Source: a virus. From it: 64,000 nucleotides of DNA. Both the position numbers and the translations under genes were made by a program. The notes below the pieces were generated by a model that did not search any database, had not been told where the DNA came from, and saw only the letters and a list, made by a program, of their open reading frames with translations. This document shows positions 1 through 14,074 of this stretch, in pieces. Where the stretch lies: positions 16,519-80,518 of the IMG/VR virus record IMGVR_UViG_3300048589_001057, one strand, 5' to 3'. The stretch's first letter is position 1, and the number at the start of each line of letters is the position of its first letter.

Positions 1-741
1 CACAATAACGGGTCAAAATGGTCTGCAAGGTCATACATGTCTCGCGCAAAGATGAACATGCTCTATATGGTTGAGTATGCAAACAGGCACGTTCAGGCGG
101 CTTACAATGAGGCTTTGACAGCACAGGGGTATAAGCAAGGCGGGCTTGGAGACGGCGTTTCAAACGTTAACGGTACAAACTGGGGTACCTTTTCAGGCTA
201 CTATCCGTTTGTTCCATGCGGCAGAACCACTGCGCTAGGCAATAAGTCAGGCTTTGTTAACTACGTAGTTGCAGGATTCACCGGTGGTGATATTACCGTC
301 CCGGTGCCAACATACCGCGGAGTTGAGCACCCTTATGGGCACATTTGGGAATGGGAGGACGGAATACTATATAACATTCAGGCTAATGATGCAGGCGGGC
401 AATCTCAGGTATTTATATGTGATAACCCCGCAAATTATGCCGATGTACTCACAAACTACAGGCAGGTTGGCTTGCTCCCACGAAATGAAGGTTACATAAC
501 CAGGTGTCTGCTTGATGAGGGGCTTACAATTCCAACTGAGGCGACCGGAGGCAGCTCAACAACGCGCTACTCGGATTATTTCTATACATCAATACCCGGC
601 TCTGGTAGTGCTATTAGAGGGTCTCTGGTGTCTGCGAATGCGAGTGCTGGCGCGGATGCGGGCCTCTTTTGCCTGAATACGCTTCACGTTCCGGCGAAGA
701 CGAATGCGACCTTCGGGTCTCGGCCTTGCTTCATTCCGTAG
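1..741 (+). CDS. DGR target protein with C-terminal C-type-lectin-like (Mtd-like) variable domain; probable tail fibre/adhesin, 5' end outside window
   Basis: Frame is open from base 1 (HNNGSKWSARSYM...). Contains YRGVEHPYGHIWEW and ends ...NATFGSRPCFIP, typical CLec DGR-target motifs. Its 3' end is the VR matching the downstream TR. Confidence 0.85.
   Translation, partial: HNNGSKWSARSYMSRAKMNMLYMVEYANRHVQAAYNEALTAQGYKQGGLGDGVSNVNGTNWGTFSGYYPFVPCGRTTALGNKSGFVNYVVAGFTGGDITVPVPTYRGVEHPYGHIWEWEDGILYNIQANDAGGQSQVFICDNPANYADVLTNYRQVGLLPRNEGYITRCLLDEGLTIPTEATGGSSTTRYSDYFYTSIPGSGSAIRGSLVSANASAGADAGLFCLNTLHVPAKTNATFGSRPCFIP
617..731 (+). repeat. DGR variable repeat (VR)
   Basis: 115-nt gapless match to 818-932; 14 of 15 mismatches are at TR adenines. 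Confidence 0.95.
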
Positions 742-785
742 AACGAGGCGCGATCGCCGAAGGCCGAAAAACGGAGCACGGGGCG
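742..785 (+). promoter_or_regulatory. GC-rich short hairpins after the VR (putative DGR homing hairpin/cruciform)
   Basis: GGCG-CGAT-CGCC, GCC-GAA-GGC and CCG-AAAAA-CGG inverted repeats directly after the target stop codon, where DGR cis elements lie. Confidence 0.5.
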
Positions 786-817
786 ATTTTAGTTCTTTGA
801 TTAAGGTTGTAGTTGGT

Positions 818-932
818 GAGGGTATCTGGTGTCTGCGAATGCGAATAATGGCGCGAATGCGGGCCTCTTTTACCTGAATACGAATAACGTTCCGGCGAAT
901 ACGAATGCGAACATCGGGTCTCAGCCAAGCTT
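818..932 (+). ncRNA. DGR template repeat (TR)
   Basis: Non-coding copy of the VR rich in AAT/AAC codons; has A at the positions that vary in the VR; followed by spacer ACCCTGCCACTTGGCAAAAAAT and the RT start. Confidence 0.93.
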
Positions 933-1045
933 TTTAATTAATTGATTTCACCGACTAAACCCTGCCACTTGGCAAAAAATGACAATTTTAAACCGCTTTA
1001 TGGTAGTCACATGGCGAAGTATAGCGGCTTAACAGAAGCAAAACT

Positions 1046-1120
1046 ATGAAACGAATTTCACATCTGTACGAAAAATTATGCAGCATGGATAACCTCATCC
1101 TGGCTGATGCTAATGCTTAA
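1046..1120 (+). pseudogene. Truncated DGR reverse transcriptase (N-terminal 24 codons only)
   Basis: Translates MKRISHLYEKLCSMDNLILADANA*, resembling the MKR...LYEKI.S.DNL.LA N-terminus of DGR RTs. Sits at the expected position after TR and spacer. No YxDD-containing RT body follows. Confidence 0.8.
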
Positions 1121-1123
1121 AAC

Positions 1124-1489
1124 ATGGAAACAACAAACTTATTAATATTACTTTTTATAGGGTTGTTTTTAGCCTTATGGAACGCTTACGTAATTGAATG
1201 GGGACTATCTACTAATTTAGTTTATCGTAGCAATATGAGTAAACTTTGGCATAGGATAGGTTTCCTTATTCGGGCTGCACTTGCTTGTTATGTTACGGCT
1301 TCATACGGATTGTTCTATGGATGGTTATCAGTAATAGTCCTTTGGCAGCTTTACGATGTGATAATCAATTTAGCACGTAAAATGCCAGCCTTCTATGTTG
1401 ACGAAAAGACCCGTAAAAGCAAGATGTCCACAGTAACGTGGATAGCCAAAGCAGGCTGGTTTTTAGGTGGATTAGCTTTCTTATTTTAG
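1124..1489 (+). CDS. Hypothetical multi-pass membrane protein
   Basis: ORF track; 3-4 hydrophobic segments. Confidence 0.6.
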   Translation: METTNLLILLFIGLFLALWNAYVIEWGLSTNLVYRSNMSKLWHRIGFLIRAALACYVTASYGLFYGWLSVIVLWQLYDVIINLARKMPAFYVDEKTRKSKMSTVTWIAKAGWFLGGLAFLF

Positions 1490-1551
1490 TTCACCTTTGA
1501 AACAATTGGAACAAAAAACCCATTAATTAACCCTTAATTCCGGAGATCACC

Positions 1552-2646
1552 ATGAAGCTATTAAAATTTACTCCCATAGGGAAAAGCCCTGAACTATTTA
1601 ATATTGATAATATTAAGTTTTCTTATCCCGATGGCTCTGGTACAAAGTTTACTTACGACTACTTTGGTAAACTTAAGCCCACCAGGGTATCAGAAAGTTA
1701 TGAAACTTTCTTAGCTTCTATCCAGGAGAACCGGCCATTCAATATCGAAAATCTTGTGTTATCCATTTTGAACGTGGATTACCGGGCATTTAATATACAG
1801 GCTAACTTACCCCTAAAATGGGTAGTAAGGGGAGAGCAAACTAGTAATGGTACTCTTCTGTATTGCCATGGCCAAGCCATCTCATTATCAGATGAACCTA
1901 TAGTAGTAAGAGTAACTGAAACCATTGATGAGATTATATCCCTTCAAGCTTCACTAATTCCCTTATCCATATCATCCATAGGGGGGACTGAATATGAGTT
2001 AGTCATAAGTGATGCTGGCAAGTATTTACGATTTTTTAGCCCTAATCCAGTAAGTGTTTTTGTTCCTCCGCATGAAAACGTTCCGTTACCTATTGGTATA
2101 CCCATTACTCTAGAACAAGCTGGTGAGGGAGTTATTACGGTAATGGCTAGTGAACTGCCAATCGCTACTATCAATGGGCTCCCTTGTTCTGGTGGGCAAT
2201 ATAAAACTCTTCAATTAATACAAGTCGAGGAAGATACTTGGACTTGCATAGGCGGGGTAACTCCAGAAATACAATGGGATTATGAGGGGGTATTAGTAGC
2301 TGGCATGGTTGTTGAGGAAGAGGCTATAGTTACGGGTTATGCGGATACGCCTAATTTTGATACCTTAGGTACAATCAACCCCAGTCCAATTACTTTATCC
2401 AATAACCGGCAGGTTAATCTTCTAGTCCATGATAATGGGGGGGGAATGCTCGGGGTAGCAGGTTTACTAGCCCTTGAGGCTACCGAATCCACTCCTGAAG
2501 CAGTAGGTTTTATACAGGTTTCCATTGACAATACTGTTTATGAAATTGGGGAATCCGGTATAGTAGAAATGGTGGAATCTCCATTTACTGACGGCGTTGA
2601 ATATAACATAAAAATTAGAGTTATGGAACAACCTTCAAATACCTAA
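1552..2646 (+). CDS. Putative virion structural/accessory protein
   Basis: Central YELVISDAGK...LPIG..ITLEQAGEG...WTCIGG domain of a kind common in tail and fibre proteins; lies in the structural region. Confidence 0.5.
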   Translation: MKLLKFTPIGKSPELFNIDNIKFSYPDGSGTKFTYDYFGKLKPTRVSESYETFLASIQENRPFNIENLVLSILNVDYRAFNIQANLPLKWVVRGEQTSNGTLLYCHGQAISLSDEPIVVRVTETIDEIISLQASLIPLSISSIGGTEYELVISDAGKYLRFFSPNPVSVFVPPHENVPLPIGIPITLEQAGEGVITVMASELPIATINGLPCSGGQYKTLQLIQVEEDTWTCIGGVTPEIQWDYEGVLVAGMVVEEEAIVTGYADTPNFDTLGTINPSPITLSNNRQVNLLVHDNGGGMLGVAGLLALEATESTPEAVGFIQVSIDNTVYEIGESGIVEMVESPFTDGVEYNIKIRVMEQPSNT

Positions 2647-2649
2647 ACC

Positions 2650-2862
2650 ATGTACACCGACCTCTTCTTCATTCTCTTCCTATCAGTCACCGGATATTAT
2701 CTGGCTGAATATATTAGGACTCTTATCACTAAGGACATAAGAAACCTTACTAAGTATTTAAGGTATTCACCAATCATTATGATGGTCCTAGCTGTTCTTC
2801 TATTTCTAGCCCTCCTTGCTGATGGCACTTTGTTTAATACTCCAGTAACTAATTATTTCTAA
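2650..2862 (+). CDS. Small 2-TM membrane protein (holin-like)
   Basis: 70 aa, two hydrophobic helices. Confidence 0.45.
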   Translation: MYTDLFFILFLSVTGYYLAEYIRTLITKDIRNLTKYLRYSPIIMMVLAVLLFLALLADGTLFNTPVTNYF

Positions 2863-2864
2863 CC

Positions 2865-3203
2865 ATGAAACCATTTATCAAAGAATCCCTGACTGATACC
2901 AGAGGGTACCCTTCATCAACCCGGGTAATTGCCTACAGGCTGGCTCTGTGGTTTTTCCCCTTGTTTAATCTCCTATACATAGGGTTGCTTACCCTTATTA
3001 TATATATGGTACTACGCCAAGGGAAAAGCATTGATGATGTGGTAGTTAGCTTTACCCTAACCACTTCAGGCTTTATACTTAGCCTTGATACCTTACTGTT
3101 GGGGTATGTGTTTGCCTCAAAGAGGACTGGCAAGTTAGCTGAAACTTCTGAGATAATTGAAATTGCCAAGGCCACTAATGCCGATCCATTGGTAGAAAAA
3201 TAA
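2865..3203 (+). CDS. Holin-like membrane protein
   Basis: LTD..G.PSSTRV N-terminal motif plus two TM helices, as in phage holin-like proteins. Confidence 0.5.
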   Translation: MKPFIKESLTDTRGYPSSTRVIAYRLALWFFPLFNLLYIGLLTLIIYMVLRQGKSIDDVVVSFTLTTSGFILSLDTLLLGYVFASKRTGKLAETSEIIEIAKATNADPLVEK

Positions 3204-11097: not shown

Positions 11098-13125
11098 ATG
11101 CTCCTATATAACAGTTCCAACTTAAATCTTGGCCTCCGGATTTCCCTGATAGATAACTTCTCAGGTCCGGCTGCCAGGATTAGTGGAGCCTTCAAAAATC
11201 TCAAGAATGAGAAAAGCCTGTTCGAAGCTAATGCTAGAGCAGGCAGAGATATGTATAGGAGTTTGGCTATGGCTGGTACTGCCGCTACATTAGGTATGGG
11301 TGCTGCCTATAATAGAGGAGCTAAATTTGAATACATCATCCGTGGAGTTTCCGCTGCTGCTGAGGCTACTTCAGAGGAATTTGAGCAATTAAAAAAGACA
11401 GCTAATGCCTTGGGTGGTACTACAATGTTTACCCCCACAGAGGTTGGTACTGCTATGGAAATGCTGGCTAAAGCTGGCTATACTGCTAACCAAGTATTAA
11501 GTGCAACCTCCCCCATAGTTAACTTGGCTGGGGCCGCTATGGAAGATATCGGGCTATCAGCTGATATCGCGGTAAGCACCATGTACCAGTTTGGTATGGA
11601 AGCTTCCAACATGACCTACATTACTGACTTGCTAACCCAAGCTGCCTTGAAATCTAATGTGGGTCTTAAGGACTTGGGGGAATCCTTAAAGTACGCTTCA
11701 GCCACAGCTGTTGACCTTGGTCAAGATTTACCAACCGTATTGTCACTGATCATGACTTTGGGTAATGCCGGTATGAAAGGTTCTATGGCTGGGGTGGGGA
11801 TTGAAAATATGTATAGGTATATGGCTTTAGGTTTGGGCCAGTTCCGTAAACTGGGTAGATCAGAAGCCTGGGAGAAAGCTGGCCTAGATCCCACCAAGTT
11901 AGTAGATGCCAAGGGGAACTTAGTACCCATAATCAATATCCTAGAACAATTATCCAATGCTCTTTCAAAGTTTGGGGACGTTGACCAGCAAAATTTATTA
12001 TTCCAGATATTTGGAGTAAGGGGAAAAAGACCCCCATCAAAGTTCATCCAAGACCTTAGCCAAATACGCGGCCATATGAACTCTTTAGAGATGGCTGGAG
12101 GTAAAGCTGCTAATATGATGAAATTCATGATGGAGGGACCCCGGGGAGAATGGCTAAAACTACTTGCTGCCATGGAGTCTATGGCTAATGCCTTCGCTGA
12201 AGCCCTCGCTCCAGTTGTAATACCCATAATGTGGGGGCTTAACAAGATATTTACTGGTATATCTTGGTTTATGAACTCCATAGTAGGTTCAGGTATAACC
12301 CGCATATTGGCAGTTGGTATAGTACTTAAAACCGTAGTATGGGGAGTTAAATCCGCTATCTTTGGAGTTAGTCTAGCCTTATCTAGTTTGGGGGGTACTC
12401 TCCTGGGGATTAAAACCGCATGGGTAACTTCCATGGCTCAGATGAAGGCGGCTACTGCCCAGCTTGCTGGAGCCACAGCTATAACCGGTGCAGGGGGGGC
12501 AATAATGGGATATGGTAGAAGAGTAACTAATCCTAATATACGCCAAACTTCCAATGGTAGATTCTATCAGGTATTCCCAGGTACTGGTAGGGGTGCTAGA
12601 TTCATTAGTACCGCTGAAGCTACTCGCCTAAAAACCGGTAAGAATGCCCTTTTAAGAACCATGTTCTCAGGAGCTGGCTTGGCTAGTATGGGCCGTGGTG
12701 TTATGGCTTTCCTCGGTGGCCCCGTTGGAATGGGCATTATGGGGATAAGCTTAGTATTGCCTTTAATCTTACGTGGCTTAAATAAAAATACCGAGGCTAC
12801 AGAAGAATCCAACCAAGTTATCCAGGATGGTGCTAGGGAAAGTAGAAAATTAATTAGTATGATGGCTAATGAATTTTCTGGCTTAAAAAATACATATATA
12901 AGACAACTATATAATTCTTCAGGGTATGGCTCAGACAACACTGACTTCATATTAGCTAGAAGGTTAAATGAATATAAACAATCCCCCAATTTATTTGGTA
13001 AGAGGGAATTCTATGATTACAGTAACCCAGATAGGATTGATATATACCTTGATGGTAATCTGACAAAAACCATAGAGAGGAAAATTAATCGGAACATTAA
13101 TACCCAACTAAACATAGGTCTATAA
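11098..13125 (+). CDS. Tail tape measure protein (TP901-family core)
   Basis: LG.TT.FTP.EV..AME.LAKAGY, DLGESLKYA, LGNAGMKGSMAG motifs. Confidence 0.9.
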   Translation: MLLYNSSNLNLGLRISLIDNFSGPAARISGAFKNLKNEKSLFEANARAGRDMYRSLAMAGTAATLGMGAAYNRGAKFEYIIRGVSAAAEATSEEFEQLKKTANALGGTTMFTPTEVGTAMEMLAKAGYTANQVLSATSPIVNLAGAAMEDIGLSADIAVSTMYQFGMEASNMTYITDLLTQAALKSNVGLKDLGESLKYASATAVDLGQDLPTVLSLIMTLGNAGMKGSMAGVGIENMYRYMALGLGQFRKLGRSEAWEKAGLDPTKLVDAKGNLVPIINILEQLSNALSKFGDVDQQNLLFQIFGVRGKRPPSKFIQDLSQIRGHMNSLEMAGGKAANMMKFMMEGPRGEWLKLLAAMESMANAFAEALAPVVIPIMWGLNKIFTGISWFMNSIVGSGITRILAVGIVLKTVVWGVKSAIFGVSLALSSLGGTLLGIKTAWVTSMAQMKAATAQLAGATAITGAGGAIMGYGRRVTNPNIRQTSNGRFYQVFPGTGRGARFISTAEATRLKTGKNALLRTMFSGAGLASMGRGVMAFLGGPVGMGIMGISLVLPLILRGLNKNTEATEESNQVIQDGARESRKLISMMANEFSGLKNTYIRQLYNSSGYGSDNTDFILARRLNEYKQSPNLFGKREFYDYSNPDRIDIYLDGNLTKTIERKINRNINTQLNIGL

Positions 13126-13826
13126 TGGCTACCTACAATCTCCAAGACTTACTTCCAAAAGGTTTGTTATTAACTAACCGGATAATAGCTGAAGCCAGAC
13201 CTGGTACGTTAACTCATGATACAAACTCATCTGAGTTTACTAAAAAAATTAAAGCCAACCGCGAAGCTGGGTCAGTTTTAGCCTGGGAAAAAGAAACCCC
13301 AAAATCAGCCGTAGACTCCATTATTTTAGTGGACATGGATTTTGTAAAGGATGATAATAGGCATGGTAGATATTATGACACTTTAACCATCCCTACTATC
13401 CCCCGGGAAATCTCCTATGACCCTATGCCGAGCTGGTCTACAATAGCCTCTATAGGTAGGAATGCCCCTTTTTACAATTACTCTGGGTCAGAAGATACCC
13501 TCACCTTCGAGATCGATTGGTTCTCAAAAGCTGATGATCGTTCATACGTACTCTATGCCTGTAGATGGGTAGAAGCTCTTACTAAAGCCAATGGCTACAA
13601 TGGAGACCCACATAGGCTAAAACTCATATGGGGTAAAGATGCCCTACTATTTAAAGATGTGGTATGGGTAGTTCATAAAGCCAGCTACAGACTATCCCAG
13701 TTCCATAAGGGCAAGTCCATGCTACCCCAGCAGGCTTACCAAGAAATAATTTTAAAGAAGGTATTGGATAAAAACTCAACAGATGAGGATATATTCGGAA
13801 CTTCCTTTAACTACCGCAACTTATGA
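13125..13826 (+). CDS. Tail tube initiator/baseplate protein
   Basis: W..IASIGRNAPFYNYSGSE..LTFEI, P..LKLIWG, LPQQA motifs; synteny. Confidence 0.65.
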   Translation: MATYNLQDLLPKGLLLTNRIIAEARPGTLTHDTNSSEFTKKIKANREAGSVLAWEKETPKSAVDSIILVDMDFVKDDNRHGRYYDTLTIPTIPREISYDPMPSWSTIASIGRNAPFYNYSGSEDTLTFEIDWFSKADDRSYVLYACRWVEALTKANGYNGDPHRLKLIWGKDALLFKDVVWVVHKASYRLSQFHKGKSMLPQQAYQEIILKKVLDKNSTDEDIFGTSFNYRNL

Positions 13827-14074
13827 CAGAACTTTATAAAGACCTATATATCTGGGAATTCTCAGACGGTTCAAAGATGGCCCTTGAGGCTAACTCTATT
13901 GTTGTGGGTAGCCCATTAACCCATGTTGCTAGTAAGTGGGATACTCTATGGGGTATATCCTTTAGATACTACGGAACTCATAAGTTATGGTTTGTTATAG
14001 CAGAGGCTAATGACCTGATTGACCCTTTTCAGGACCTCAGTAATATGAACCTAATCATACCTAACAATGGCTAA
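13823..14074 (+). CDS. LysM/gp53/tail-X-like baseplate protein
   Basis: DTLWGISFRYYG...LWFVIAEANDLIDP motif. Confidence 0.8.
   Translation: MTELYKDLYIWEFSDGSKMALEANSIVVGSPLTHVASKWDTLWGISFRYYGTHKLWFVIAEANDLIDPFQDLSNMNLIIPNNG

Follow-up and report, generated by a model that had tools for sequence, protein, structure and literature searches.

Can a phage DGR that has kept its VR, its TR and the spacer RNA between TR and the reverse transcriptase (RT) gene still rewrite the tail gene that it targets when the RT gene itself breaks off after 24 codons? The question is raised by the left end of a 64,000-nt stretch of viral DNA (hereafter, the window), which comprises positions 16,519-80,518 of the 80,518-bp record IMGVR_UViG_3300048589_001057 (G000). 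An earlier note on this stretch had proposed two answers: either the phage froze a successful receptor variant by deleting the RT, or the element persists as a non-autonomous DGR that relies on an RT supplied in trans. Here we analyze the whole virus record, which is complete, with direct terminal repeats of 127 nt and a completeness of 100% according to CheckV, and compare its DGR cassette with the same cassette in four IMG/VR contigs (L002, L003, L004 and L005) and in one Bacteroidetes MAG (L050, scaffold WSXX01000009.1 of genome G005).

The explanation that accounts best for the results, and the one we regard as probable, is that of a recently disabled, incomplete DGR whose RT body was either deleted or never transferred, and whose tail tip is now a fixed allele. 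What is new in this analysis is that the cassette is a foreign, 1.3-kb mosaic patch, the right edge of which coincides with the point at which the RT gene is interrupted.

Target gene, repeats and the truncated RT gene

The features of the locus are collected in Table 1. The 438-aa product of the target gene matches the PHROG family phrog_5302, annotated as 'tail protein' (E 3e-108), and its amino acid sequence is 80-82% identical to the DGR targets of L002-L005 and L050. With regard to its fold, the protein yielded no match in Pfam and a profile search of PDB sequences was empty; the AlphaFold model, with a pLDDT of 26, is of no use, and the Atlas returned a weak lead to FGE-sulfatase.

Table 1. 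Features of the DGR locus, in window positions unless marked as genome (complete record) positions
Feature	Position	Strand	Remarks
DGR target gene, 3' 246 codons	1..741	+	full gene at genome 15943-17259, 438 aa, starting 576 nt before the window; tail protein
Foreign mosaic cassette	1..1116 (genome 16,336-17,634, i.e. window -182 to 1116)	+	blastn, GC content, amino acid identity
VR	617..731	+	ends 10 nt before the target stop codon; IMH-like block over its last ~20 nt
VR codon AAG (Lys) opposite TR AAT	697..699	+	non-adenine change, private to this phage
VR-TR spacer	732..817	+	no avd gene there, same as in intact relatives
TR	818..932	+	IMH*-type 3' end; base 824 is A, private to this phage
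Putative structured spacer RNA between TR and RT, Rfam RT-17-like	958..1045	+	36.4 bits, E 8e-6, full model length
RT stub, 24 codons then TAA	1046..1120	+	ORF list; tblastn
Breakpoint	1116..1117	.	homology to every intact element stops after 1116
Backbone gene, 121-aa hydrophobic protein	1124..1489	+	first of a two-gene module with 1552-2646

The earlier note had described VR and TR as a gapless pair in which 14 of 15 differences fall at adenines of TR, and this description is borne out statistically. The repeats form an ungapped pair of 115 nt, with adenine making up 29 of the 115 TR bases, and the concentration of differences at these bases is far from that expected by chance (binomial P = 4.8e-8; Fisher P = 2.8e-9). 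The 14 adenine differences are heterogeneous in nature: ten lie at truly variable sites, three (positions 722, 726 and 727) are fixed differences between IMH and IMH* that occur without exception in the six related elements, and one results from a private change in TR. The variation in VR among these elements is located at adenines of TR, and the IMH-like block at the end of VR is invariant among the six VRs. The five relatives show 14-21 VR/TR differences per element, every one of them at a TR adenine.

The spacer RNA attains its score against the Rfam RT-17 model under the gathering score of 40.4, and L002 and L050, close relatives that are intact, have spacers with the same score; that of a distant relative, L006, exceeds the gathering score, with 43.9. 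The region downstream of VR, on the other hand, folds no better than shuffled sequences (z = -0.4). The earlier statement that the cis elements, hairpins included, have been retained is therefore upheld for VR, IMH, TR and the spacer RNA, all of which are intact, and needs to be amended with respect to the hairpins, for which it is valid in the spacer RNA only, given that no significant hairpin exists downstream of VR.

In a separate and distant intact DGR, found in L065 (IMGVR_UViG_3300029288_001057, about 12,366-13,965), the RT is 55% identical and an exact 24-nt TR core is shared with this family, indicating that the TR core is conserved well beyond this RT lineage.

The RT gene starts and stops where it had been proposed to, with an ORF of 24 codons at that position that tblastn identifies as an RT N-terminus. 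The query used in this search of the whole record, an intact 331-aa DGR RT (L005:7560-8555), itself matches the Pfam family RVT_1 (E 4e-19), and the stub is 81% identical to its residues 1-26. In L002, L003, L005 and L050, TR and the spacer are followed by a 331-aa ORF with the same first residues as the stub. The stub is also the sole match to the RT of the intact relative in the complete record, and a six-frame search of that record with RVT_1 yields no match at E <= 10. The Avd family (PF05635) is likewise absent from the record, so that the lack of an RT body and of avd, which had been noted for the window, extends to the entire genome. PF05635 is absent from the records of the intact relatives too, and the absence of Avd is for this reason not part of the decay. 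With only RT codons 1-24 left and no RVT_1 match elsewhere, the element must be considered a DGR remnant and not a complete DGR; since there is no RT elsewhere in the genome, the variable tip of the tail protein is most likely frozen.

We also considered that the RT body might have been displaced by an inserted element and continue further downstream, and rejected this arrangement because no RT remnant is present anywhere else in the record.

The cassette as a mosaic patch

Several lines of evidence set the cassette apart from the genome in which it resides. In blastn searches, the cassette is 90.3% identical to L050 over 1,299 nt, in a match that ends at window position 1116, and 83% identical to L002, L003 and L005, with the same end at 1116. 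On the left side, DNA homology reaches genome position 16,336, or 16,186 for weaker matches. The GC content of the patch is 0.47-0.55 (about 0.48), versus about 0.38-0.40 in the flanks and the backbone, and the amino acid identity of the target to its relatives jumps from 57-62% over residues 1-131 to 90-92% over residues 132-398.

The remainder of the genome has a different set of relatives. Comparison by tblastx with the four full cassette-bearing records, one of which is classed as a provirus, reveals nothing in common besides the cassette, and the capsid gene of our phage is absent from all four. The relatives of the backbone, phages of ~80 kb with capsid proteins 50-68% identical, show no target or RT gene in the stretches around their capsid genes, and they are too distant to reveal the ancestral state beside the gene at 1124. 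A search of the viral contig collection for relatives of the 121-aa and 364-aa proteins located beside the stub found none.

Comparison with the related elements, including those in public sequencing runs, defines the right edge of the patch to the base, with homology ending exactly at window position 1116. Contigs in runs X1, X2 and X4, which derive from two groundwater samples and one hydrocarbon sample, extend past 1116 as intact RT, and record 18 of X4 is 100% identical to window 860-1116. The 26-mer spanning the 1116/1117 junction is unmatched in the viral and metagenome contig collections. The public runs that were found carry only the cassette of related intact elements, and none of them covers window 1124-3000, a lack of coverage that carries no weight as evidence.

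In a 2025 wastewater run, X3, low-depth contigs are 100% identical to window 451-629 and 926-1101; this run may contain the direct donor of the patch, or the phage itself at very low depth.

On the far side of the breakpoint, the membrane-protein gene that had been reported to start at 1124 is present as a hydrophobic ORF of 121 aa. The two-gene module that it opens is one of two diverged paralogous modules (genome 10936-11994 and window 1124-2646), whose second genes are 30% identical at the amino acid level (E 2e-17). In each module, a small membrane protein precedes a protein whose N-domain of ~130 aa is common to both modules and whose C-terminus is not. Together, the two modules flank a beta-helix fibre gene and the DGR target gene, and the stub adjoins the start of the second module. 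The stub and the 121-aa gene share a reading frame (window 1046-1489), with TAA AAC between them, which is probably an accident of the join.

Recency of the RT loss and competing readings

The age of the RT loss can be gauged by comparison with L050, in which the RT is intact. Over window 732-1116 the two elements differ at two of 385 bases (99.5% identity); their TRs agree at 114 of 115 positions, and the last 17 bases of VR, which make up its IMH-like end, are identical. Such a small number of differences from an intact element implies that the RT was lost recently, and a recent loss in turn means that the intact state of the cis elements requires no selection as an explanation.

The 99.5% identity over 732-1116 stands against the 90.3% identity observed over the full 1,299 nt, most of which is target gene. 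This contrast reflects either a second recombination boundary near VR or a far stronger constraint on the cis elements than on coding sequence.

The course of events that we propose on these grounds begins with a swap of the receptor-binding domain, in which the C-terminal two thirds of the tail protein would have been acquired from a different lineage of Bacteroidetes phages or prophages. VR, TR and the spacer RNA would have travelled with this domain, together with the initial 71 nt of the RT gene, leaving the end of the patch inside RT codon 24 and the start of the resident membrane-protein gene seven bases further on. The RT body would have been deleted or, by way of a homologous crossover on the left and an illegitimate join on the right, never transferred, and the partial DGR may have arrived already incomplete; the anatomy of the locus, the absence of an RT, the boundaries of the mosaic and the near-identity to an intact element are observed, and the order of transfer and deletion is inferred. 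With no RT in the genome, the TR RNA would not be copied into cDNA and VR would no longer be rewritten, from which we infer that the DGR is inactive in this phage. VR would now be altered by ordinary mutation only, the tail tip would constitute a fixed allele, and the cis elements would owe their perfect appearance to recency and not to use.

Two private changes within the repeats bear on the time elapsed since VR was last rewritten. VR base 699 is a G in this phage and a T in its own TR, in all other VRs and TRs and in the contigs of public runs X1, X2 and X4. The Lys codon that it creates is not attributable to rewriting, since adenine mutagenesis of AAT cannot yield Lys. TR base 824 is an A in this phage and a C in all the relatives compared, and the C is kept at the corresponding position of its VR (623). 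Both changes are compatible with ordinary drift after the last round of rewriting, and a pair of changes is too few for statistics or proof. Base 824 is situated 7 nt inside the 5' end of the repeat, in a zone that cDNA integration may fail to reach. With this caveat, the changes at 699 and 824 argue mildly against recent rewriting.

RT genes have also been lost elsewhere in this group of elements. L004 (IMGVR_UViG_3300040971_000062, genome G003) lacks 879 bp relative to G001/G002, with which it shares 94-95% identity to the left and right of the gap. The deletion, the ends of which share a short TGCA motif, takes out RT codons 13 to about 305, and the result, at L004:7547-7660 (about 33,500 in G003), is that RT codons 1-12 are joined out of frame to the tail of the RT gene and read on into the following ORF. 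VR and TR of L004 are intact and remain a clean pair, all 21 differences lying at adenines. This loss is independent of that in our phage.

A more distant pair of elements shows a further arrangement. VR, TR and RT are all present in L008 (6004-8473), and L009 (5884-7830) carries a homologous tail-protein gene with a VR-like end, without TR and RT. In L009 the place of TR and RT is taken by an unrelated 226-aa ORF with no Pfam match, one motif of which, judged by eye, recalls a putative HNH-type homing endonuclease.

A rival explanation is that VR and TR continue to be rewritten, in non-autonomous fashion, whenever the phage infects a cell in which a prophage encodes a cognate RT. This is mechanistically possible by two routes, with the prophage RT copying the TR RNA of the phage or the cDNA of a prophage TR homing into the VR of the phage. 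The near-identity of TR, of the end of VR and of window 732-1116 to an intact DGR in a MAG means that the TR and spacer of the phage could still serve a cognate RT present in the same cell. The complete identity of the X4 element over 860-1116 points in the same direction, as does the fact that RT loss with retention of TR occurred twice in this small family, and there is precedent in BPP-1, in which a plasmid-borne avd-TR-brt works in trans (Wu et al., PMC5758913). Nonetheless, the near-identity is equally well explained by recency, and the non-adenine change at 699 persists in VR while the private base at TR 824 has not been copied into it. A link to a host with an intact element was not found either, the comparison of our phage with the intact-element MAG giving short, imperfect matches only, none of them spacer-like, and close cognate elements are rare, occurring in one of the 301 species representatives sampled in the order of the MAG. 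We hence deem trans use quite unlikely. An extension of this idea, which we hold to be slightly more doubtful still, is that TR, spacer and VR borrow the RT of near-identical prophage DGRs in the same hosts, as a SINE borrows from a LINE, and that the recurrent loss of RT in our phage and in L004 represents a lifestyle instead of decay. Were trans use to be true, DGR cis elements would spread and function without an enzyme of their own, and the way in which the activity of DGRs is deduced from genome sequences would have to be altered.

The recurrence of RT loss lends itself to another interpretation, in which the loss was favored by selection, be it for fixing a receptor-binding allele or for removing the cost or risk of hypermutation. 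The independent losses in our phage and in L004/G003 agree with it, as do the lack of TR and RT in L009 where L008 has both, the preservation of an intact target ORF, and the RT deletion reported in a gut phage, which its authors speculate may have arisen independently in infant and mother (bioRxiv 10.1101/2023.08.07.552389). Mutation pressure alone acting on a dispensable gene also predicts recurrent loss, however, and the location of the break does not favor the earlier proposal that the RT was deleted to freeze a receptor variant: the 1116/1117 break coincides with the right-hand limit of a 1.3-kb patch gained by horizontal transfer, which speaks for the mechanics of recombination and not for a targeted deletion. 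We therefore judge a selected freeze to be unlikely. An artifact of assembly, whereby the contig of the phage received a spliced-in piece of prophage DGR, the real phage having an intact DGR or lacking one altogether, could be suspected from the failure of any public run or contig to reproduce the 1116/1117 junction, from the GC content of the patch, which is unlike that of the backbone, and from the occurrence of cassette-like DNA in several metagenomes. It would require two false joins inside a contig closed by a terminal repeat, and the 438-aa target ORF is in frame across the left boundary and homologous to its relatives over its whole length; these two facts render misassembly unlikely. 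In addition, the right join leaves a tidy stop codon with a gene start seven bases on, and a chimera produced by an assembly graph demands that the joined sequences have a word in common, and such a word would in itself mean that the 5' end of an RT gene is present in the phage. Taken together, these observations make a chimera highly improbable, and the reading that we retain as the most likely is that of a DGR disabled recently.

Comparison with known systems

Phages and bacteria are both known to harbor DGRs whose RT is broken or absent, and as a discovery the present case consequently matters little. Its value is that of a clean example, in which an intact element of almost the same sequence is available for comparison with a complete phage genome, and it is this comparison that makes the breakpoint known to the base. 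The case further illustrates that, when receptor-binding domains are swapped, part of a DGR can be brought along into a phage of unrelated ancestry.

The DGR of Bordetella phage BPP-1 (mtd-avd-TR-brt) resembles the element described here in the logic of mutagenic retrohoming: in both, VR closes the 3' end of a gene for a receptor-binding tail protein, IMH and IMH* are distinguished, the changes are adenine-specific, and a spacer RNA, putative in our phage, lies between TR and RT. It differs in that our phage lacks both avd and RT and in that the target sequences are unrelated. Schillinger et al. (2012, PMC3521204) encountered truncated RTs in their DiGReF survey, in DGRs with adenine-specific differences whose RT genes had been disrupted by transposon, nonsense mutation or frameshift, and which were read as recent inactivations. 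The truncated RTs of that survey keep most of the RT gene; the one reported here keeps 24 codons.

A loss of RT has been followed in gut phage I123_PsAC1, where a 502-nt deletion in the RT arose and VR remained largely unchanged thereafter (bioRxiv 10.1101/2023.08.07.552389). Both phages have a tail-protein DGR that lost its RT and kept VR and TR. The deletion in I123_PsAC1 is internal and was tracked over time in one population, whereas in our phage everything 3' of codon 24 is gone, and L004 is accordingly a closer analogue of I123_PsAC1 than is the element studied here.

A further parallel is provided by the crAss-like phages of AlphacrAssvirinae genus I (Morozova et al. 2020, PMC7290462), 66 of whose 91 genomes (73%) bear incomplete cassettes, with a TG-VR-TR-RT layout and no avd. 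These phages, which are of Bacteroidetes type, share with ours the order target-VR(IMH)-TR(IMH*)-RT, the lack of avd and the association with a tail-fibre gene, and in most of their genomes the RT gene is truncated, whether VR and TR are present or not. Our phage stands apart from them in its unrelated backbone and RT lineage, in a truncation that falls at the edge of an acquired patch and in the fact that a near-identical intact element is known.
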